The translations under genes were made by a program, and so were the position numbers. A stretch of DNA of 61,319 nucleotides, taken from contig CAZBTU010000003.1 in the NCBI GenBank assembly GCA_964494905.1, positions 1 to 61,319 of the forward strand, given 5' to 3'. Origin of the DNA: an uncultured Pseudomonadales bacterium (GTDB taxonomy: Bacteria; Patescibacteriota; Microgenomatia; UBA1400; PJMF01). The notes below the pieces were generated by a model. The model was not told the origin of the DNA, did no database searches, and saw only the letters and a program-made list of their open reading frames with translations. This document shows positions 1 through 42,774 of this stretch, one piece after another; the stretch's first letter is position 1, and the number at the start of each line of letters is the position of its first letter.

Positions 1-18
1 TAAGTCTTAAGAATATAA

Positions 19-57
19 GCAAAAAATAGTTCAAACTGAGGATTTGTGGGCTCACAA
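19..57 (+). repeat. Island interspersed repeat, copy A (short form)
   Basis: GCAAAAAATAGTTCAAACTGAG + 10-nt variable spacer + CTCACAA. Same core and orientation as the copies at 1071, 3128 and 8036. Lies just downstream of the APH gene. Confidence 0.6.
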
Positions 58-82
58 TCAATAATTTCAATCATCTCCAAAC

Positions 83-991
83 CTAATCAATTTCTATCTC
101 TGCAAGCGCGTTCGCGACATTTACAAAACTATCAAGGAAATCTGCATTGTCTTCAACTGCCCATAATGACGATAAGACTGTCTGAAATAATCCCCATAAA
201 TAAATTCTCTTAGAATTTAAATCTAATATTCGAGAAAATGTGTAAATACGATTTTTAAGAATTTCCTTAAGTTTAGGATCACTCCCAATTGCTGGAGGAT
301 TTCTAAGAAATGTAGCAACTTCATATGCTTTTTCACCAATGATTCCAGAAGGATCAATTACTATCCAACCCTTTACAGAGTCAAAAATTATATTGAACTG
401 ATGCAAATCTCCGTGTAAAAGAAACTCCTCTTCTGGATTTTGGGTCAAAAGAATATATGCATCTTGAGCTTTCTTTAAAATGTCCGCAGAAAAAAGCGTA
501 TTCATTGGTGATAATTCTTTAAGCCTAAGAAAGTCCTGATATAGTTCATCTAAACTTCTAAAATCTGAAGAAACATCAACTTTTTTCCACAATCGATCCA
601 TAAGTGATGCAGCTATAATAATTGCTTCATCTTCTTGTATCGTGGCAAGAGTTTGTGCTGGGCTTATTTTTTCTAAAAGAATAGCTGGGATAGATTCATC
701 CACTTGTAATACTTTTGGAACTGGACCATCCTTTTGCAATTTTAAATAATTAATTTCACGATAAAATTCTTGATCTGGATAACTTACTTTAAGAACTATA
801 TCGCTTCCATTCTTAGTTTTGCCTTGAGCCACATAATTGCAATAACTATTTTTGAAAGGAGCTTCAATCTCGATATGCCAGTCTTGTTGTAATTTTTCTA
901 TACTACTCGGAAGTTCTTGTAGCCATTTTTTTCCCGCCTCACCTCGTGAGAGCATAAGCTCATTTAATTGTCTTGGTATATTTATTTGCAT
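83..991 (-). CDS. Aminoglycoside O-phosphotransferase, APH(6)/streptomycin 6-kinase (StrB-like) family
   Basis: LHGDLHQFNIIF...GWIVIDPSGIIGE matches the HGDLHxxN catalytic loop and the IDP motif of APH(6) enzymes. The C-terminal half aligns by eye with StrB. The ATG at 991 (MQINIPR) lies 9 nt downstream of a TATAAT (1006-1001 on minus). The ORF-track start at 1000 is a TTG. Confidence 0.8.
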   Translation of the reverse strand: MQINIPRQLNELMLSRGEAGKKWLQELPSSIEKLQQDWHIEIEAPFKNSYCNYVAQGKTKNGSDIVLKVSYPDQEFYREINYLKLQKDGPVPKVLQVDESIPAILLEKISPAQTLATIQEDEAIIIAASLMDRLWKKVDVSSDFRSLDELYQDFLRLKELSPMNTLFSADILKKAQDAYILLTQNPEEEFLLHGDLHQFNIIFDSVKGWIVIDPSGIIGEKAYEVATFLRNPPAIGSDPKLKEILKNRIYTFSRILDLNSKRIYLWGLFQTVLSSLWAVEDNADFLDSFVNVANALAEIEID

Positions 992-1070
992 AATAATCAA
1001 ATTATACTACTAGAAAAAAACAGTAATCAGTTAATACTTTCATAATTTAATTCTATACAATATATAAGAC

Positions 1071-1127
1071 GTAGCCTCTCGAGGTCTGCAAGAAATGGTT
1101 CAAACTGAGTTGCCTTAGGGTCACAGT
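1071..1127 (+). repeat. Island interspersed repeat, copy B (long form)
   Basis: GTAGCCTCTCGAGGTCTGCAAGAAATGGTTCAAACTGAG + 11-nt spacer + GGGTCACAGT. The left arm GTAGCCTCTCGAGGTCTGCAA is identical to copy D at 8036. Confidence 0.65.
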
Positions 1128-1146
1128 AAAAATAGACATCTTTGGC

Positions 1147-1932
1147 ATGGGAATAAAAGACGAAACAAATTATAAAAGAATTTTAGAAGCTTTACTGATA
1201 GTTGTACTTTTTGTCCTGTTTTTTACATATTTCTGTGCTTTGGACATTTTAAGAAATTCAGCGTCCGAACTGTTAAGGGACGTTCGCCCTGAATTAATTG
1301 GTGCTATCATTACATATTTTTTGATTGAAAAAGCACTTTCTTTTTATAGAGCAAGAGAAGAACAAAGGCGCCTTAAGTTAACTCATGATATGTTAAAATC
1401 AGTACTAAATACGTACATAGATCTTGCAGCATCACTATATAAATCGACCCTAAAAGAAAAAATTCAAATACCAAATTTAGATACATTTTTTAATTCTAAT
1501 TTTGTTGGTTCCATAAACAAGATTGATTTGTCCTCAGAATCTTCAATGTTAGAAATGGATAATCTTGCTTTTACTTCTTATAAGGGAATTCTACTACACA
1601 ATGATTTAGAAAATTTTATCAACATCCACTACTACGAGATAAGCAGTGAGATGTTAGATGCTCTGCTAGAATTTAAAGGTAAACTAATAGCTCTCGCTGG
1701 CTTAAAACAACTCTTTCAAACTCGTAAGCGCGCATTAAAAATTAACATCCCAGATACAACTAATTTGGGGGATCTTTTTGAGATATCGATGAATGAGTTT
1801 AAAAATATAGTTAAATTATTTAACAAAGCTAATCCAAAAAATCCAATTAAACTAAATACTAAAATTTTAGAAGATGGTGTTTGGAATGAAAAGCATGCTC
1901 CAAAATTCGGAAGTGGTATAAAAATGGATTAA
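1147..1932 (+). CDS. Hypothetical membrane protein (two N-terminal TM helices, soluble C-terminal domain)
   Basis: Long ORF in the AT-rich island. Hydrophobic stretches ILEALLIVVLFVLFFTYFCAL and PELIGAIITYFLI. No recognisable motif. Confidence 0.55.
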   Translation: MGIKDETNYKRILEALLIVVLFVLFFTYFCALDILRNSASELLRDVRPELIGAIITYFLIEKALSFYRAREEQRRLKLTHDMLKSVLNTYIDLAASLYKSTLKEKIQIPNLDTFFNSNFVGSINKIDLSSESSMLEMDNLAFTSYKGILLHNDLENFINIHYYEISSEMLDALLEFKGKLIALAGLKQLFQTRKRALKINIPDTTNLGDLFEISMNEFKNIVKLFNKANPKNPIKLNTKILEDGVWNEKHAPKFGSGIKMD

Positions 1933-1955
1933 GCTGTTGAGACCTAGGGTCACAA
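1933..1955 (+). repeat. Partial copy of the island repeat (right arm only)
   Basis: GCTGTTGAGACCTAGGGTCACAA resembles ACTGAGTTGCCTTAGGGTCACAG of copy B. Sits immediately after the stop of ORF 1147-1932. Confidence 0.4.
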
Positions 1956-1982
1956 ATTATTCATTTTTAATACTAAAAACTG

Positions 1983-2026
1983 TGGCGCGTATTTTGGCGC
2001 GTATGTGGCGCGAACTGTGATATACT
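1983..2026 (+). promoter_or_regulatory. Fic1 promoter/operator: three phased TGGCGCG direct repeats plus an extended -10
   Basis: TGGCGCG at 1983-1989, 1995-2001 and 2006-2012 (spacing 12 and 11 bp). TGaTATACT at 2018-2026. The ATG at 2034 is only 7 nt after the -10, so the transcript is near-leaderless. Confidence 0.55.
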
Positions 2027-2033
2027 CATTACT

Positions 2034-3086
2034 ATGTATACTCCAAAATTTACTATTACCTCTGAAATAACAAATCAAATAGCTGAGATTGAAGGTATTC
2101 GCACCATTGTAGATCAAAGCAATATTCTACCAGAGAAAGAAATAGCCCTACGATACAGAGCAACTGTAGAAGCAATACATAGCTCAACTACAATTGAAGG
2201 CAATCAACTAAACAAAAAACAAGTTGAGGCTGTACTTGCTGGAAAAGCTGTGGCACAAACTGAGTATGCCATTACTGAAGTAAAAAATTACAAAAATGCT
2301 CTTGACTGGCTACAAATTAGAAAACAAAACTCTAAACAAATCTCAATTGAAGATATCCTAAAAATACACGAGCTAACTATGGATGGACTTTTACCAAAAG
2401 AAAAAACTGGTCATTTGCGTCCGGGAGAAGTATATATTGTTGACATTATTAATAATGATGAGCAAGTTCGCTACCATGGTCCAAAATCTGAATTACTTCC
2501 TGATTTACTTTCAGATCTGTGTAAATGGCTGGAATTCGAAGCCAGTAAACTGCATCCAGTATTAGCTGCAAGCATCCTTCATTATGAATTTGTTTCAATA
2601 CATCCATTTAGCGATGGAAATGGTAGAGTTACTCGATTATTAACAATGCTCTACTTATCTCTGCGTCAATACGATTTTAGAGGAGTACTTGTCCCAGAGA
2701 TTTATTATCTTGATCATCGTATGCAATATTACAATGCTTTAAACCAAGAAAATGAATATAGTAAGCAAAGAAATGCAAATCTTACTCCATGGATTGAATT
2801 TTTCGTCAAAGGATTTTTAACTACAACCAAACACTTAAAAACAGAAATTACTATTGCTCAAGCAGTTAATCCCAAAAATGTAACCATTCGTCTGTCGCAA
2901 GAAGAAATACAGTTGCTCGACTTTGTGAAACAAATGGGTTCAATTTCGTTGGAAGAAACTTTAGAAATTCTACAAATTCCTAGAAGAACTGCTCAAAGAA
3001 GGCTGAGTGAATTAGTTGATAAAGGACTATTACGATTAAACAGCAGTGGTAAAAATACTAATTATATAGCGCATGTTCACAAGTAA
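2034..3086 (+). CDS. Fic family protein, class II (intramolecular inhibitory helix), with C-terminal winged-HTH-like domain
   Basis: Fic core motif HPFSDGNGRVTR (HxFx[D/E]GNGRxxR). Upstream inhibitory motif STTIEGN ([S/T]xxxE[G/N]). The C-terminal LSQEEIQLLDFVKQMGSISLEETLEILQIPRRTAQRRLSELVDKGLL looks like a wHTH. Confidence 0.88.
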   Translation: MYTPKFTITSEITNQIAEIEGIRTIVDQSNILPEKEIALRYRATVEAIHSSTTIEGNQLNKKQVEAVLAGKAVAQTEYAITEVKNYKNALDWLQIRKQNSKQISIEDILKIHELTMDGLLPKEKTGHLRPGEVYIVDIINNDEQVRYHGPKSELLPDLLSDLCKWLEFEASKLHPVLAASILHYEFVSIHPFSDGNGRVTRLLTMLYLSLRQYDFRGVLVPEIYYLDHRMQYYNALNQENEYSKQRNANLTPWIEFFVKGFLTTTKHLKTEITIAQAVNPKNVTIRLSQEEIQLLDFVKQMGSISLEETLEILQIPRRTAQRRLSELVDKGLLRLNSSGKNTNYIAHVHK

Positions 3087-3127
3087 AGCCAAGCTCTTTT
3101 AGTCGAGCATATGTCTTGAGGATACTG

Positions 3128-3168
3128 GCGAAAAATAGTTCCAACTGAGGGTGTGTGAACTCACAGCG
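3128..3168 (+). repeat. Island interspersed repeat, copy C
   Basis: GCGAAAAATAGTTCCAACTGAG + GGTGTGTGAA spacer + CTCACAGC. A degenerate left arm (ATGTCTTGAGGATACTG) lies at 3111-3127. Located in the convergent gap between Fic1 and the 1148-aa gene. Confidence 0.6.
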
Positions 3169-3224
3169 TTTTTCTCTAGAGTTTTTCACACCCTAAGTGC
3201 AACATTGAACTATTCTTACTTTTT

Positions 3225-3261
3225 TGGCACAATTTTTGGCGCGATTATGGCACAATATAGT
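3225..3261 (+). promoter_or_regulatory. Orphan Fic1-type operator/promoter-like element with no downstream ORF
   Basis: TGGCACA (3225-3231), TGGCGCG (3237-3243) and TGGCACA (3248-3254), with the same 12/11-bp phasing as the Fic1 operator. A TATAGT follows at 3256-3261. It points into the 3' end of the convergent 1148-aa gene. Confidence 0.4.
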
Positions 3262-3347
3262 TTGTATTTACTCAAAATGTAACTTTATAAAGTATTTGAA
3301 GATACAGTAATTTTGCTTTATACTGTGGCAAGACCGACAGGGAATAG

Positions 3348-6300
3348 CTAGTTCAATGCTTCAATATATTTATCAATTTGTTCCTTCATGAATGATGTGG
3401 CATTTGATTGATATGATTTTAATAAGTTAATTATTTCACTCGGTGAAATTATCTGTTGCCATTGATCACTTTTTGATTTATAACTTTCAATAAATTCATA
3501 AAAAAATGTAGGATTTTGAGTTACCTCTCTTATGAATATTCTGGCATCTCTCATTTCTCCTGAGTTAAGTAAGATCGGATTGGAAAGAATAAGCTCTTTG
3601 CGATATGTTGGTAAAATCAAAAAAAGATATTCAAATTGTTTTTCCGAAGCAATTGAAGCAAAGAAATTATTAGGTAGACCTGTTGAATTCACTATATCAA
3701 AAACATAGTGTTCACCATGTAGATCTTTTATCCCACTCAATACATTTAGGTAATCCTTAATCATAAAAGTTTCACCTGAATTCATAAAAGCATCTATTTG
3801 ATCAAAATTACTAACAATATTGGCTAGTGTTGTATAACCATAATCATCATAAATACCACGAAATATTTTATTGATTTGATCTTGATTAAGCTGCCCAAAG
3901 TATTCCTTACAAAGGGTAAAGTATGGGTCAGACTCATCTGCAAGATAAAGTTTTTGCAAGAATTCAGTTCGAAAAAGAGTAAACAGAATCAATTGCTTTG
4001 CCATGGGATCGATGACCATGAACTTATCCAAATATTCTGTATCAAGTTTATCTAAATCTCTGATCGCATCAGGGCTTACTGGCACAGTAAGATCAGAAAG
4101 GTTTGGACTAAGAAGAATAAATCGATTGAAGAGTGAACCACCCAGTTTAACATAGATAACGTTACCTGTATTGTCTTCAAATTCAACAACTTCACCGGTT
4201 ATCAATTTTTGTAGAAGTTCTCTGTATAGCACATTGTCATCAAATTCGACAACTTCGCCGGATATGAATTCCTGTGGTAATCGCGGATCAAATCCATACC
4301 AATTTGCATTTGTGTCAACCGCGATAAATCGTAATTGCGAACCTATTTCTCCACTTTTTGTTTCCGGTTTCGGTGCACCAGGTAGATCATCAATTATTTC
4401 ATCAAATACTGCAAGGTTACTCATTAAATAGTCCAATTGATCTCTGAGTTTTTTACTCCCATAAGGATCTCCTGAATATCCTTGATATATTCCAATATAA
4501 TCCTGAAGCAAGCCGCCAATACTCGCGGACGTAGGTGATACACCTGCTATAGCAAGCAGATTCATAATATGATACATCCCACCAGCTAGGTTAGCCGGAT
4601 CAAAGTTTTTCATTAGAAAATCTTTAGAAGGTATATCCCAGTATTTAGATTCTGGGAGCAGTAACGCTAGATCAGCCGCAGTAAATCCTTTTGAAAAAGG
4701 GTCTTCGATCATTGTCTGAGCCAGAAATCCGGAATCAGAATTATTTAATGAACCTATAGGAGTACCTATAAATGGGTTGTTTCTCGTAATCAGTTTTAAA
4801 GCGATAGTTACATCCCACATTGAGGAGTAGAGATCACCGTCATTTTTAACAAGCGCAAAGGCTAATATATCGGAGATAGGAACTTGGTTTTGTGTATGTT
4901 CATATTGTTGAAAAATAAAATTTTGATAATCAGAAAAATATAAAGTAATTTGTTCAATATTTAGCTGTTTAACTGTTGGGTGAAGCGAGTTATACAAAAC
5001 ACAAACGTCGTGGAAATTAGAAAAATTGCTACTGGATAGATGATAAACTTGTTGTAGTGATTCCGATGTTATTGACAAGAATAGAGGATCACTATTATTA
5101 TTTTTTGATAAAGTATAATCCGTGACAACATCATCTAATCCGACGTAGTCAGGATGAACTTGCCAGAAAACAGGCGAGGGGTCGTGATTATATTTTCTCG
5201 CCATTGTTTCATATGTTGAAAATGCATTCGTTAATAACACATCAATTGTTTGATAATTCAGGTTTTCTTTTTCTAATAATTCATATAGTGCTGTCTGCTT
5301 TTCTTCTGGGAATAATTCGATTTGTTCTCGTAACTGATCATCAAAATCTCTTTCTTTTTCCGTAAGGACAGTGATCGCAAACTCGAATAACTTTTTTGCA
5401 GACTCGGGATCACTTAAATCAGCATTTATCATCTGAATAAATTGTGGGTCTGTGAATATATCAATCAGTGCTTCACTAGGTAGTTTAGAGATAAGATTCA
5501 AGGTCTGATGTTCAAACAGTTCTAAAAATTGTGCTCCCATCTCTGTAGTAGTAAGCCACATTAGACCTTTTTGAATAATCATTTGTTCCTGATTATGGAA
5601 AAAATGTTCTACCGATTCACTCGCAGCCGAAACTATATCAGCTGCTGTCGGACCAAAAACTGAAAGTAAATATAATATATTCACTAAGATTAAATCTTTT
5701 TTTAAATCGGCAGCTCTATCACTATTTGTTGCAACTTGTTCAATTCTTGTACGGATTCTGTTTATCTCTCTTGGTATTTTTTGACCCTGTTGTTCCATGC
5801 AGACACACCACTGGACTATTTTTTGTGTCGGCGTAAGACTATCATCACTAAGCACCAAACTTGCAATTTTAGGCTTCAGTTCTTCAAGAGTTTTCAGGGA
5901 TCGTAAACGACTGACGTTGTCGCCATAGCTGTATGCACCTGATCTCTGATCTTCAAGCAATTGGCCATAAACAACAGCGTGTGAATGTTCTCGAGAACCC
6001 TGTGTAGTCCGTAATGTTTGAGTCAGTACACCCATGTGTTTAAGAGTTTTCTCAATTTCACTTTTACCTTTTTCTTTAAGTGTGTTTTCTAAACCAAAGA
6101 AATCATTTATTCTACCAAAAAATTTGGTTCTTCCAATACTTTCAGCAGCTAGTCCATCAAGCGCCATTGCTTTATTGAGGTTCCATTGTTTCAAAAAATC
6201 ATGATTAGCATCTTTTAAAAAAGAAGCTGCTGTATTCCACCAGGTTTTTGACTCAACTGCAAGAAAATCATAATAACTGATTTTATCGGTAAAACCATCT

Positions 6301-6794
6301 TCGCCTGATTCAAGTTTAAGAGTTAGGAAAACAAATTGCCGTAGTTTTTCAATTGAAGTTTGCTCTAGATCTATTTTCCCCAAACAATCTATAATTTGTT
6401 CTGCGTTTGTGAGCTGTTTTTCTACTAATGGACAAAGATCCGCAAATACTTCAATCATACTCATTCGCACATTTCGTTCTTTCGAATTGTTTGGCTGAAG
6501 AGAGGTGACAGAATCAAATGAATAGGGTTTGATGTATTTTAGAAAACGTTCTACCTTAACTGACAACGTTGTGCTAGGTTCTACAAGGATTTCATTTACC
6601 TTATCATCAAAATCATTTGAGCTTATCGTCGATGCATGAACTTTCTTAATGAAATCAGCTTCTTCTTTCAGTAAATGCAGTATTTTCTTTGAAGTTATTG
6701 CATTTATTTCTTCTAATAAACGCGTCTCAGTCAAGAGCTTCTTTCCAATTTCAAAATTCAAAGTATCAATATTTTCAACAGGTTTTTCGTTCAA
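3348..6794 (-). CDS. Large orphan protein (1148 aa), function unknown
   Basis: Uninterrupted 3.4-kb ORF in AT-rich DNA. Apparent TTG start; the next in-frame Met is about 105 codons in. No catalytic motif recognised. Internal duplicated segment SGEVVEFDDN / TGEVVEFEDN (29-nt DNA repeat at 4171-4199 and 4234-4262). Co-directional with the Fic gene 137 nt upstream. Confidence 0.75.
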   Translation of the reverse strand: MNEKPVENIDTLNFEIGKKLLTETRLLEEINAITSKKILHLLKEEADFIKKVHASTISSNDFDDKVNEILVEPSTTLSVKVERFLKYIKPYSFDSVTSLQPNNSKERNVRMSMIEVFADLCPLVEKQLTNAEQIIDCLGKIDLEQTSIEKLRQFVFLTLKLESGEDGFTDKISYYDFLAVESKTWWNTAASFLKDANHDFLKQWNLNKAMALDGLAAESIGRTKFFGRINDFFGLENTLKEKGKSEIEKTLKHMGVLTQTLRTTQGSREHSHAVVYGQLLEDQRSGAYSYGDNVSRLRSLKTLEELKPKIASLVLSDDSLTPTQKIVQWCVCMEQQGQKIPREINRIRTRIEQVATNSDRAADLKKDLILVNILYLLSVFGPTAADIVSAASESVEHFFHNQEQMIIQKGLMWLTTTEMGAQFLELFEHQTLNLISKLPSEALIDIFTDPQFIQMINADLSDPESAKKLFEFAITVLTEKERDFDDQLREQIELFPEEKQTALYELLEKENLNYQTIDVLLTNAFSTYETMARKYNHDPSPVFWQVHPDYVGLDDVVTDYTLSKNNNSDPLFLSITSESLQQVYHLSSSNFSNFHDVCVLYNSLHPTVKQLNIEQITLYFSDYQNFIFQQYEHTQNQVPISDILAFALVKNDGDLYSSMWDVTIALKLITRNNPFIGTPIGSLNNSDSGFLAQTMIEDPFSKGFTAADLALLLPESKYWDIPSKDFLMKNFDPANLAGGMYHIMNLLAIAGVSPTSASIGGLLQDYIGIYQGYSGDPYGSKKLRDQLDYLMSNLAVFDEIIDDLPGAPKPETKSGEIGSQLRFIAVDTNANWYGFDPRLPQEFISGEVVEFDDNVLYRELLQKLITGEVVEFEDNTGNVIYVKLGGSLFNRFILLSPNLSDLTVPVSPDAIRDLDKLDTEYLDKFMVIDPMAKQLILFTLFRTEFLQKLYLADESDPYFTLCKEYFGQLNQDQINKIFRGIYDDYGYTTLANIVSNFDQIDAFMNSGETFMIKDYLNVLSGIKDLHGEHYVFDIVNSTGLPNNFFASIASEKQFEYLFLILPTYRKELILSNPILLNSGEMRDARIFIREVTQNPTFFYEFIESYKSKSDQWQQIISPSEIINLLKSYQSNATSFMKEQIDKYIEALN

Positions 6795-6931
6795 AACATG
6801 TACTTTTTTTTTAGCAAAATTTCTGGCATGTATTTACTTTAACACGATTTTGTTGATTTTGCACAAAAATGTGAGTTCAATACCCTATGAGAATTTGTTG
6901 AAAAAATACCTGTCATTCATTAAATAAAATC

Positions 6932-7966
6932 TTACTTATCACTCAACACATAATAAGTAGACCGACCCTTACCCTCGCGTTTAATTAAACCTAATTCAAT
7001 CAATCTTTGAAAATCGAGTGTTCTGGTAGCCTTTGCCCTATCAGTCAACTTTGAATATGCTCTATCTGTAATAAAACCGTTTTGCTTTATATAATTAATT
7101 AATTTTAAATGATATGTCTCAATTTTAGTTTCAGGGGAATAACCAGTTTGCGGAATTATCTTTTTCACTCTGTGCAACTCATCAATGATACCTTCTGTAA
7201 AATACTCAAGCCAACTAGTGAAATCAATTGTTTCTCTCAATTCATTATAATCACCACATTCACCAACAGTCTGAAAATATTTTGTTACATTTTTATTGTA
7301 ATAGTTCTCAAAACTAAACAGATTAAATGTATTAAGTCCCATTTTTGCCAACAGAACTTTAGTCATTAATCTTGTGGTTCTACCATTCCCATCAATAAAA
7401 GGGTGGATAATAACCATTTGTTTATGAAAAATGCCTGCCAAAATCAAAGAATCCACAATATTTTTATTTCGGATAACAAATGTGGCAAGTTCTGTCATTA
7501 ATTTATTAACTTGATCATGATCAGGAGGTAAAAATACAACCTTGCCTGTTCTAGGATCATTAACAACTACAGGCTTTTTTCTCAGTCTACCTGACTCAAA
7601 ATCAGGTAACAAGCCGCCAATGACTTTTTTATGAACTGCTAAAATTAGATTTAAAGAAATAGATAAATCATCTTTTTTACTAAGATCATTCAAGTATTCA
7701 AGTGCCTCAATATAGTTAAGCACTTCTCGTTCACTATCACGAATGTATTCTGGTCTATTCTTTAATACTTTTTTAACTTCAGTTAAAGGTAATGGATTAC
7801 CCTCAATACTCGTAGATGCAAAGGCAGAAACTTCTCTTGCCTTTCTTTCAAAATCAATCAATACAACTTTGGGAAATCTTTGATTATTGAGTTCTTCGAC
7901 TAATAAAGCTATATACTTTATATTTGAAAGCAGCTTATTTGTAATCGTATACTTTGGCGTAAACAT
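6932..7966 (-). CDS. Fic family protein, class II, with C-terminal wHTH-like domain (paralog of 2034-3086)
   Basis: Fic motif HPFIDGNGRTTR. Inhibitory motif STSIEGN. N-terminus MFTPKYTITNKLL parallels MYTPKFTITSEIT of Fic1. C-terminal LKLINYIKQNGFITDRAYSKLTDRAKATRTLDFQRLIELGLI is HTH-like. Confidence 0.88.
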   Translation of the reverse strand: MFTPKYTITNKLLSNIKYIALLVEELNNQRFPKVVLIDFERKAREVSAFASTSIEGNPLPLTEVKKVLKNRPEYIRDSEREVLNYIEALEYLNDLSKKDDLSISLNLILAVHKKVIGGLLPDFESGRLRKKPVVVNDPRTGKVVFLPPDHDQVNKLMTELATFVIRNKNIVDSLILAGIFHKQMVIIHPFIDGNGRTTRLMTKVLLAKMGLNTFNLFSFENYYNKNVTKYFQTVGECGDYNELRETIDFTSWLEYFTEGIIDELHRVKKIIPQTGYSPETKIETYHLKLINYIKQNGFITDRAYSKLTDRAKATRTLDFQRLIELGLIKREGKGRSTYYVLSDK

Positions 7967-7968
7967 AT

Positions 7969-8004
7969 TAGTCTAATAATAGTCGATTATTAGTCGATTG
8001 TCAA
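7969..8004 (-). promoter_or_regulatory. Fic2 promoter/operator: TTGACA-17-TATTAT overlaid by three phased TAGTC(G/T)A repeats
   Basis: On the minus strand, TTGACA (8004-7999), a 17-nt spacer, then TATTAT (7981-7976). The ATG at 7966 is 9 nt after the -10. On the plus strand, TAGTCTA 7969-7975, TAGTCGA 7980-7986 and TAGTCGA 7991-7997 (11-bp phasing). Confidence 0.6.
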
Positions 8005-8035
8005 TACTCTGATTTTATGCTAAGTATAGTAAGAT

Positions 8036-8089
8036 GTAGCCTCTCGAGGTCTGCAAAAAATAGTTCCAACTGAGGGCGCGTGGGGTCAC
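8036..8089 (+). repeat. Island interspersed repeat, copy D (long form), at the right edge of the AT-rich island
   Basis: GTAGCCTCTCGAGGTCTGCAAAAAATAGTTCCAACTGAG + GGCGCGTGG spacer + GGTCAC. Coincides with the switch from about one-third GC to higher-GC DNA. Confidence 0.65.
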
Positions 8090-8156
8090 TCTATTGGAGT
8101 TTGTGAGAGTTGATTAGTCTTGCTACTTCTAATAGCAACCAATTTCATCAACTCGA

Positions 8157-8771
8157 TCAGAAGCAGTATGACAACATAATTTCCCTTGCTGTTAGTTTGT
8201 AAAAATTGAAAGCAGCTAGCATTTCGTTTGTGGCATTCTGACTCAGTCGATTTTCACTTCCAGCGATAAACTCAAGACGATCGTCTAACACTTTCGAGTT
8301 AGTTAATGACGATATCCGCCTTGTGACAGACCAAACAGTATCAATGAATGGCGGTAGCTTCATGCCTCTTCTAATCTCAACAAATTCTTCTTCCTCCACT
8401 TGTCTCCCCAACAAAGATGAGATGTATAGCTGCTCCACCCCAAAATCAGTATCGGCATCAAATTTAGTATTAAACACTTTTCGAATAGTAGGAATGATCT
8501 CCTCACTGACAGCTGTTAGAATTTCCTCGACACGTTCGGCTGTGGATACTTGCTTCCCAGTAACACGATCTGTATTGATGGGAAAAAGTGTCGGGACAGC
8601 GTCCTCAGTCAATTCAATGGGCGAGAGGGGCGGCTGCTTAATTGTTGAAAAAACATCGTCGATATCAGGTTGCTGCAAATGTTGTGCCTCAAATTCAAAT
8701 AGGTCCTTTTGCAATCGTGTTCTGTTTATATGTGAAGTGACTGATGCTAGTAACTCACGAGCCAGATGCAA
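8157..8771 (-). CDS. Hypothetical protein (204 aa)
   Basis: ORF co-directional with and 66 nt downstream of the PD-(D/E)xK-like gene. No motif recognised. Confidence 0.55.
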   Translation of the reverse strand: MHLARELLASVTSHINRTRLQKDLFEFEAQHLQQPDIDDVFSTIKQPPLSPIELTEDAVPTLFPINTDRVTGKQVSTAERVEEILTAVSEEIIPTIRKVFNTKFDADTDFGVEQLYISSLLGRQVEEEEFVEIRRGMKLPPFIDTVWSVTRRISSLTNSKVLDDRLEFIAGSENRLSQNATNEMLAAFNFYKLTAREIMLSYCF

Positions 8772-42691: not shown

Positions 42692-42700
42692 CGCAATTTG

Positions 42701-42774
42701 TGAGTCCGCCGGGACTCGAACCCGGGACGCACAGCTTAAAAGGCTGTCGCTCTAACCGACTGAGCTACGGACCC
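42701..42774 (-). tRNA. tRNA-Lys (anticodon UUU)
   Basis: The reverse complement folds as a cloverleaf: GGGTCCG-TA-GCTC-AGTCGGTTA-GAGC-G-ACAGC-CTTTTAA-GCTGT-GCGTC-CCGGG-TTCGAGT-CCCGG-CGGACTC-A. 74 nt, CCA not encoded. Confidence 0.93.

Follow-up and report, generated by a model that had tools for sequence, protein, structure and literature searches.

The window analyzed here is the whole 61,319-nucleotide stretch of contig CAZBTU010000003.1 (GenBank assembly GCA_964494905.1). It opens with a low-GC island at positions 1..8089 (32-37% GC, vs 38-48% for the rest of the window), and within this island a short repeat recurs between the genes. An initial annotation, made from the sequence alone, had singled out this repeat as a possible recombination site or structured RNA module, and it is the subject of the present analysis. 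The island consists of four cassettes, each with copies of the repeat as its bounds. For the scan of the window, a profile hidden Markov model (nhmmer) was made from 29 distinct copies; the E-values given below for repeat copies come from that scan, and the subtype letters are explained with the related loci. The features are as follows:

12..56, minus strand: repeat copy 1, subtype B, truncated by the window start (E=2.8e-9)
55-51, minus strand: boundary motif GTGAG of copy 1; the copy reads CEPTNPQFELFFAYILKT on this strand
83..1000, minus strand: aminoglycoside/hydroxyurea-kinase-like gene, APH(6)-like (APH_6_hur, PF04655, E=3.5e-31)
1056..1125, minus strand: repeat copy 2, subtype A, with GTCAC at 1120-1124 on the plus strand (E=4.1e-22)
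1147..1932, plus strand: cargo open reading frame (ORF) of 261 amino acids (aa), no family match
1910..1954, minus strand: diverged repeat copy, with GTCAC at 1949-1953 (E=0.016)
2034..3086, plus strand: Fic1, with a Fic/DOC domain and a C-terminal helix-turn-helix (HTH)
3096..3165, minus strand: repeat copy 3, subtype B, with CTCAC at 3160-3164 (E=5.3e-9)
3348..6794, minus strand: cargo ORF of 1148 aa, no family match
6932..7966, minus strand: Fic2
8029..8090, minus strand: repeat copy 4, the outermost, at the border of the low-GC island with the core of 41-48% GC (E=5.8e-17)

Read along the minus strand from the core genome, the order is copy 4, a promoter-like site, Fic2, the 1148-aa ORF, a decayed Fic1-type operator and copy 3; then Fic1 on the opposite strand with its apparent operator of three TGGCGCG repeats, the diverged copy, and the ORF at 1147-1932, again on the opposite strand; and finally copy 2, the APH kinase gene, copy 1 and the window end.

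The core of the repeat, AAATRGTTCMAACTGAG, occurs four times on the plus strand (24-40, 1093-1109, 3133-3149 and 8058-8074), where 0.05 occurrences are expected from shuffled sequences. The profile search recovered the same four copies, so the family reported in the initial annotation is real. A partial copy had also been reported at 1933-1955; it is genuine but longer than was thought, and corresponds to the diverged fifth copy, which the profile aligns at 1954-1910. The sole further profile match in the 61 kb, at 35990-35955, is weak and at chance level (E=0.043), and the same search found no other copy in the remaining 53 kb of the window. All five copies are co-oriented, as had been observed, and the same is true of every multi-copy locus elsewhere; by our own arithmetic, random orientation would produce this pattern, over the window and the multi-copy loci, with a chance of ~1e-4. 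Other details have to be revised. The spacer, described as 9-12 nucleotides (nt) long and different in every copy, is exactly 10 nt in each and belongs to one of a few types that are conserved across genomes and within each subtype. The palindrome around CTCGAG is present in copies 2 and 4 but absent from copies 1 and 3, which belong to subtype B and have another left arm.

Copy 4 is a mosaic. Its core, spacer and GTCAC end are of B type (8052-8089) and its left arm is of A type (8029-8051); on the minus strand, the initial 38 nt are B type and the remainder A type, with the switch near TTGCA. Copy 2 translates on the minus strand as CDPKATQFEPFLADLERLRLIYCIELNYESIN followed by a stop. Copy 3 reads CEFTHPQLELFFASILKTYARLKELGF on that strand, and its similarity to other B copies ends near the Fic1 stop codon (3084-3086). 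The diverged copy overlaps the 3' end of the ORF at 1147-1932 and resembles an A' variant of the type found at L121 (L numbers designate loci in other sequences).

Some 25 related contigs of Patescibacteria type have the element; its copies there share one orientation in every case and frequently form arrays of 2-4. A genome scan with the bare 17-mer core gave mostly chance matches, which were filtered by the 10-nt spacer followed by STCAC; the metagenome loci were found with a stricter pattern than the 17-mer. At least eight genome loci and 18 metagenome loci carry the element, with a spacer of 10 nt throughout. Among the matches listed, the genome-collection loci with real copies are L029, L031, L049, L058, L080, L102 and L108. 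Viral contigs scanned with the stricter pattern gave 0 matches, and a viral origin was discarded on this ground. Each locus has one to five copies, which are clustered, and on contigs of 0.4-1.1 Mb the matches listed are confined to one stretch. In the arrays identified by the profile search all copies are co-oriented (4/4 at L121, 3/3 at L134, and 2/2 at each of L058, L108, L126 and L136).

Spacer types include TTRCCTTAGG, GATTTGTGGG, TGTCRTTAGG and others. Subtype A can be written as ...GCCTCTCGAGGTCTGCWARAAATGGTTCAAACTGAG TTRCCTTAGG GTCAC; subtype C is a relative of A in which GCTCAAAATGAGC replaces the CTCGAG region; and subtype B is ...GTCTTGAGGATACTTGCAAAAAATAGTTCCAACTGAG GATTTGTGGG STCAC. 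The gene content of the hosts, including a type IV secretion system (T4SS) cluster of the Patescibacteria type, together with contigs of roughly 1 Mb, points to Saccharibacteria-like Patescibacteria. The element-bearing metagenome-assembled genomes L029, L031, L058, L080 and L102 are labelled ‘uncultured Pseudomonadales’; their gene content and Patescibacteria-labelled sisters suggest a mislabel. Several contigs (the window, L031, L129, L130 and L138) start or stop inside a copy, as a repeated or polymorphic junction would cause; this suggests that assemblies fork at these places, owing either to the repeats or to cassette polymorphism within populations. One look-alike family was dropped: a highly conserved AACTGTTTCCAAAATGGAAATAGTTCAAACTGAGGG stretch at L028, L033, L041, L047, L051, L056, L057, L059, L067 and L094 has the 17-mer, apparently by coincidence, but reads as coding sequence (..ATVSKMEIVQTEG..) in unrelated context in many phyla and has no Rfam match.

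The copy that terminates each array in related genomes, referred to here as the master copy, is an ORF of 31 codons (A/C types) or 45 codons (B type). The stop of this mini-ORF overlaps codons 2-3 of a PLD-family gene of 146-151 aa in the pattern ATGnnTRR, and its acidic tail includes the GAGGAG ribosome-binding site of the PLD gene. The PLD gene leads a syntenic block that comprises a small ORF, an HTH gene, variable ATPase/restriction genes, an M23 peptidase, VirB4/TraG, TraC-like and PrgI genes, and T4SS pilins; its upstream side is variable across related genomes. Internal copies have only the first ~66 nt in common, from GTGAC to ...CTTATATAT, and a few of them extend into the first PLD codons (L121:8592 and L080). 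The PLD protein matches nuclease modules of the defence systems MkoC, DrmC and DpdK. As in L058, L108 and L121, a PLD gene with the T4SS block may be situated immediately outside window position 1. The T4SS cluster of Patescibacteria is reported to be mostly chromosomal and without a relaxase, and is therefore probably not an integrative and conjugative element (ICE); the paper that describes it makes no mention of PLD genes or recombinases beside the cluster (10.1101/2025.01.22.634366).

Every copy in the window is open in one minus-strand frame, which is the start of the mini-ORF (DPKxTQFEPFLA...). This opposite-strand reading frame with coding-like evolution, and the likeness to a tRNA 3' end described further on, are features beyond those in the initial annotation. 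The A/C-type mini-ORF reads (C/G)DPK(V/A)TQFEPFLA(D/H)(L/F)E(R/Q)LR(L/Q)(I/M)Y.... and the B-type mini-ORF EPTNPQLELFFASILKTYARLKELGF.... Over 24 distinct A/C copies, entropy by codon position is 17.8 at the third, 9.1 at the first and 7.0 at the second position, and there are multi-step synonymous switches (Leu TTA/CTT/CTC, Arg CGT/CGC/AGA); thus, the mini-ORF has evolved under amino-acid selection. Synonymous sites are invariant over ACT CAG TTT GAA CCA TTT, which is the core recognized in the initial annotation, so that the core is also under a constraint at the DNA level that exceeds coding needs. There is no conserved start codon, and in-frame stops occur 1-45 codons upstream in unrelated DNA; codon 7 is TTG or GTG in the B type and TTT in the A type. 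Judging by its pattern of variation, the mini-ORF appears to behave like translated sequence even though it lacks a conserved start codon. An att-like (attachment) site coupled to such a start-codon-less conserved mini-ORF is an oddity in its own right.

Other origins for the reading frame were tried and rejected. The repeat might be the tail of a longer gene that insertions have broken up, but a word-indexed search of 5.8 billion proteins for a larger gene ending in the mini-ORF returned only 5 tiny ORF calls, and an exhaustive profile search of 1.84 billion representative proteins returned 40 short ORFs and one cyclophilin fusion, with no intact gene. Read-through from an upstream gene was also considered; the frames agree in L058 and L108 and not in L080, L121, L140 or the window, which is the chance level. 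As for P0267/L031, a candidate upstream gene, the part in common is a left flank with a terminator-like hairpin and no demonstrable protein.

The other end of the repeat is a boundary at which neighboring DNA changes. In the minus-strand reading, conservation sets in abruptly at TGTGA(C/G); of 31 distinct flanks, 25 have T as the base preceding GTGA, and there is no conservation further left. The PLD protein encoded by L146 is the same as that of L147, and the two loci are identical at 300/300 positions on the right-hand side of the motif. On the left-hand side, BLAST alignment is confined to the neighboring gene (~70%), with nothing aligned in the ~600 nt by the boundary, where L146 has an extra NUDIX gene relative to L147. 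Unrelated left flanks likewise adjoin nearly identical right sides in L108 vs L140 (279/300), L058 vs L102 (99/100) and L058 vs L144 (96/100). The converse is seen in L155 and L031, which have ~90 nt of left flank in common (80/95 aligned) and continue as A type (L155) vs B type (L031), and in L121:8561, whose left flank (where a Fic1-type cassette has its promoter end) matches the left flank of window copy 3, with an A copy following at L121 vs the B copy in the window. Finally, a repeat copy, the TTGACA promoter and Fic2 form a unit that has three different left flanks (window, L058 and L155). Same-right and same-left pairs all switch at TGTGA(C/G), and so the junction lies at a fixed nucleotide. 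In the window and all multi-copy loci, the inserted segments are bounded by direct repeats in a single orientation. The suggestion in the initial annotation of a recombination or att-like site at cassette boundaries agrees with these results: copies bound cassettes, and flanks are shuffled at the GTCAC end.

One locus shows a gene fusion at the same point. At L156 (1787-2275), the mini-ORF, which is coupled to the PLD gene, continues in frame from a cyclophilin gene that is cut short after ...FMIQGG; the joint, between GGA and GACCCT, falls within a GACCC common to both sides. In many cases a terminator-like hairpin, with an A-run on one side and a T-run on the other, stops 5-10 nt before the boundary.

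A recombinase gene meets the boundary exactly in one related lineage, represented by the same element in four samples (L140-143). Here a 597-aa large serine recombinase, with the domains Resolvase, Recombinase and Zn_ribbon_recom, lies directly upstream of the master copy. Its gene ends ...AAT TTG TGA, and this TGA is the TGA of the element's TGTGAC. The closest homologues of the L140-type recombinase in the protein collection are 48-53% identical. Three homologues (48-51%) end ...TTGTGA, with the stop overlapping a tRNA 3' end on the opposite strand; the targets are tRNA-Glu(CTC) in L150 and tRNA-Lys(CTT) in L152 and L154. The typical C-terminus among 120 family members is ...FGV..(D/N)L, and many ORF calls continue into the tRNA reverse complement (...LW.RRDSNP...) because the tRNA gene encodes CCA, giving TGG in place of the TGA stop. 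Such extended calls (P0136, P0147, P0150, P0169, P0172, P0216, P0223 and others) are an annotation artefact that reveals the target. From the stops at tRNA 3' ends and the C-terminal run-ons, this is therefore an integrase family that targets tRNA 3' ends, with genes that abut the crossover region. The att-like reading of the repeat gains from both observations, a large serine recombinase gene at the GTCAC end and homologues at tRNA 3' ends.

The repeat itself bears some likeness to the targeted tRNAs. In tRNA orientation it reads GGTTCAAAC TGAGT TACCTTAGGG TCAC, and a targeted tRNA, for comparison, reads GGTTCGAAT CCGGA TGGGG TCAC. What they have in common is limited to the T-loop-like GGTTCAAAC and the ...GGGTCAC end; from GGTTC to TCAC the repeat measures 24 nt and the targeted tRNAs 19 nt, so that the repeat is 5 nt longer. 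ARAGORN and Rfam make no tRNA call at the repeat copies. From this partial likeness, one branch of the recombinase family may use the repeat as an attachment site that mimics a tRNA.

Islands with a serine recombinase abut a tRNA 3' end or PLD site in L150 (5387-7260), L152 (549-5673), L154 (2034-8173) and L140 (5837-9926). Their cargo includes SMODS, methyltransferase/ResIII, Mrr/ATPase and NUDIX genes. The islands in L140, L152 and L154 also contain a Xer-like tyrosine recombinase, and in L152 and L154 a 48-aa ORF comes after it. The only tRNA in the window, tRNA-Lys(TTT) at 42700-42774 on the minus strand, has no island or repeat beside it.

Relatives of the window cargo are found beside the repeat in other loci. 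Fic1 is 47-49% identical to repeat-adjacent Fic genes in L121, L126, L131 and L134, and Fic2 is 83% identical to a Fic gene between two repeat copies in L058. The promoter-like site between copy 4 and Fic2 (8004-7976, minus strand) consists of TTGACA, 17 nt and TATTAT, an 11/12 match, and the AATCGACTAATAATCGACTATTATTAGACTAAT repeats that surround it are conserved in L155 and L058. Just upstream of Fic1 there are three TGGCGCG repeats, 11-12 nt apart (1983-2010); the same triple, as CGCGCCA, precedes the Fic homologue in L121 at ~8465-8500, and a decayed triple (TGGCACA/TGGCGCG/TGGCACA) at 3225-3255 has no Fic gene attached. From its sequence and position, the triple looks like the operator of a Fic1-type cassette. 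On the plus strand at ~6871-6886, in the gap that separates the Fic2 stop codon from the beginning of the 1148-aa ORF, GTGAGTTCAATACCCT resembles an inverted version of the opening 16 nt of copy 3. Either a half-site in inverse orientation or a coincidental 9-mer match could account for it.

The explanation that we favor, with somewhat better than even confidence, is that the repeats are att-type direct repeats marking the junctions of tandemly stacked, horizontally acquired cassettes. The master copy, upstream of the PLD gene at the edge of the T4SS cluster, would be the original chromosomal site, and the DNA upstream of TGTGA(C/G) would be a hotspot where cassettes, or an island bearing the recombinase, are joined at a fixed nucleotide. 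Each cassette would bring its own ~66-nt copy of the site at the end facing away from the PLD gene, and successive insertions would therefore leave co-oriented repeats between cassettes. The candidate enzyme belongs to a Patescibacteria-wide family of large serine recombinases with genes ending ...TTGTGA, the stop lying inside the site; most family members examined appear to integrate at tRNA 3' ends, and the repeat would mimic the T-loop and acceptor end. The stack in the window would comprise the APH-like kinase, the 261-aa ORF, Fic1, and Fic2 together with the 1148-aa ORF. We infer that the recombinase acts on the element, that crossover takes place in GTGA, and that the cassettes in the window arrived in this way.

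Several points weigh against this explanation. The initial annotation had proposed to look for a cognate recombinase, and a large serine recombinase gene does abut the element in L140-143, but the 61-kb window itself has no detectable PLD gene and no detectable recombinase of either the serine or the tyrosine type; the cassettes there are therefore probably non-autonomous or fossil. The recombinase adjoins the element in that one lineage only, and the other array loci, over the sequence available for them, have no serine recombinase by tblastn and no recombinase among the ORFs scanned with Pfam. The repeated unit of 66 nt, which sometimes runs into the PLD start, exceeds the length of a serine-recombinase half-site. 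Dyad symmetry at the boundary is ~6-7.7/24 in recombinase-less copies, where chance is estimated at ~6-7/24, and recombinase-adjacent sites reach just 11-12/24 complementary positions; these values do not establish a classical att of two half-sites. The DNA to the left of the recombinase genes, over 4-10 kb, showed no second copy and no P' arm. The switch inside the mosaic copy 4 means that homologous exchange also occurs, and the coding-type conservation of the mini-ORF is unaccounted for by att function. Finally, no excision circles or empty sites were observed, and the contigs that break inside copies are the only hint, an indirect one, of integration or excision.

Of the alternatives, the one that survives best, although we think it unlikely, involves no dedicated recombinase. 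The copies would be homology anchors, duplicated pieces of the mini-ORF/PLD leader, between which cassettes are swapped by homologous recombination, for example after natural transformation. This would suit the internal copies that exceed the 66-nt unit, the junction between B and A types inside copy 4, the many arrays (the majority) without a recombinase, and the lack of a half-site in the left flanks. However, breakpoints made in this way would scatter, whereas the switch to 96-100% identity sits at TGTGA(C/G) in many independent pairs. Homologous exchange alone would not produce co-oriented internal duplicates, nor does it account for the recombinase stop inside the motif or the stops of the homologues at tRNA ends.

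The arrays also bring to mind an integron-like platform, in which the PLD protein or a Xer-like tyrosine recombinase captures cassettes, with the master copy serving as attI and the cassette copies as attC. A conserved gene lies by the master site, cassettes are stacked beyond it with all sites co-oriented, and in three of the islands a Xer-like gene accompanies the serine recombinase. We nevertheless regard this as improbable. The Xer-like gene occurs only inside islands that bear the serine recombinase, and the stop of the latter inside the motif implicates that enzyme instead. PLD-family nucleases act via a covalent phospho-histidine intermediate, but a recombinase of the PLD family is not known, and the PLD protein resembles nuclease modules of defence systems. 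Pfam scans of the neighbors and tblastn revealed no IntI-type integrase beside the arrays; the repeats do not fold into attC-like imperfect hairpins, and the cassette genes run in both directions with their own promoters.

It is highly doubtful that the repeat functions as a transcribed element, whether as the small structured RNA module offered in the initial annotation, a leader or riboswitch-like module, or a promoter or terminator common to the cassettes. Conservation, intergenic position and constant orientation would be expected of such an element, in 8/12 inspected cases, by our own count, the next gene after the repeat runs the same way, and the ribosome-binding site of the PLD gene lies within the tail of the mini-ORF. 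Yet single copies fold no better than shuffles (z -1.3 to +2.0), RNAalifold gives 0 consensus pairs on either strand for 20 copies, and there is no Rfam match at the gathering threshold or at E<=10. The variation shows codon periodicity and not covariation. The repeat contains no promoter-like or terminator-like consensus except a low-scoring 9/12 promoter-like match in copy 3 (3159-3132), from a scan that found fewer sites than shuffles, and the strong promoter-like site of Fic2 falls downstream of the repeat.

Transposable-element debris, such as a miniature inverted-repeat transposable element (MITE), an insertion sequence (IS) terminal repeat or a dispersed element like the repetitive extragenic palindromes, would be short, repeated and intergenic as these copies are, but this merits next to no credence: the copies have no terminal inverted repeats or target-site duplications, never form inverted pairs, cluster at one locus both here (with none in the other 53 kb) and, among the matches listed, on the contigs of 0.4-1.1 Mb, and are not matched in viral contigs.

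Among known systems, the functionally closest, by analogy, would be the composite islands of the staphylococcal cassette chromosome (SCC), with tycheposon and tRNA-island arrays also close. SCC and SCCmec elements use the large serine recombinases CcrAB or CcrC and have integration-site direct repeats at the rlmH 3' end; an Enterococcus cassette chromosome is related. The likenesses are a large serine recombinase system, a single chromosomal site that lies within a reading frame, cassettes accreted in tandem, co-oriented junction repeats, many cassettes without a recombinase (pseudo-SCC), and cargo for resistance or fitness. There are also differences: the site here is upstream of a PLD gene rather than at the rlmH 3' end, the repeat is ~66 nt long vs 15-18 nt, and the recombinase belongs to another family, with relatives at tRNA 3' ends, in Patescibacteria hosts and with no member in the window.

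Tycheposon islands of Prochlorococcus contain degenerate remnants and extra partial tRNAs, and a minority of the elements have large serine recombinases (bioRxiv 10.1101/2020.12.28.424599). In those islands the partial tRNA genes are true ones and the recombinases mostly tyrosine recombinases, whereas the repeat here would be a mimic of a tRNA 3' end, is longer by 5 nt between the T-loop-like motif and TCAC, draws no tRNA call from ARAGORN or Rfam, and doubles as a mini-ORF. Accretion of ICEs and cis-mobilizable elements (CIMEs) of the ICESt1/ICESt3 type involves att-flanked non-autonomous modules and tyrosine integrases at the fda 3' end. Non-autonomous modules with att-type direct repeats are stacked beside type IV secretion genes in both cases, but the integrases and their target differ, and the Patescibacteria T4SS is probably not an ICE. 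Chromosomal integrons (Vibrio VCR) have in common with the present arrays the co-oriented, homogeneous repeats between cassettes of one or a few genes and a conserved platform gene adjacent; here, in contrast, there is no IntI and no attC-type fold, genes lie both ways with their own promoters, and the repeat is coding-like. In the literature, we found no description of such a system in Patescibacteria. What sets the present arrays apart from the known systems is the site, a putative tRNA mimic that doubles as a PLD-coupled mini-ORF, the longer repeat, and the different recombinase family and host phylum.

Patescibacteria have tiny genomes and few recognized mobile elements, and their acquisition of accessory genes is poorly understood. 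A more far-reaching possibility, which we offer as speculative and rather unlikely, is that Saccharibacteria-like Patescibacteria have an integron-like cassette dock: the tRNA-mimicking site would be a translated mini-ORF coupled to the PLD gene beside the T4SS, and recombinase-less cassettes would be loaded and shuffled in trans by the phylum-wide family of serine recombinases that otherwise target tRNA genes, or by the PLD protein. If true, these ultra-small symbionts would have a route of gene acquisition that has not been described before. The explanation by att-type repeats at cassette junctions, if true, would account for the assembly breaks at repeat positions and, together with a cognate serine recombinase, may provide genetic tools with a docking site in these bacteria, which are difficult to manipulate. 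The recognizable hotspot site would also serve as a marker in metagenomes for the variable gene pool of Patescibacteria, which at the loci seen includes Fic proteins, kinases, hydrolases and restriction/defence genes.

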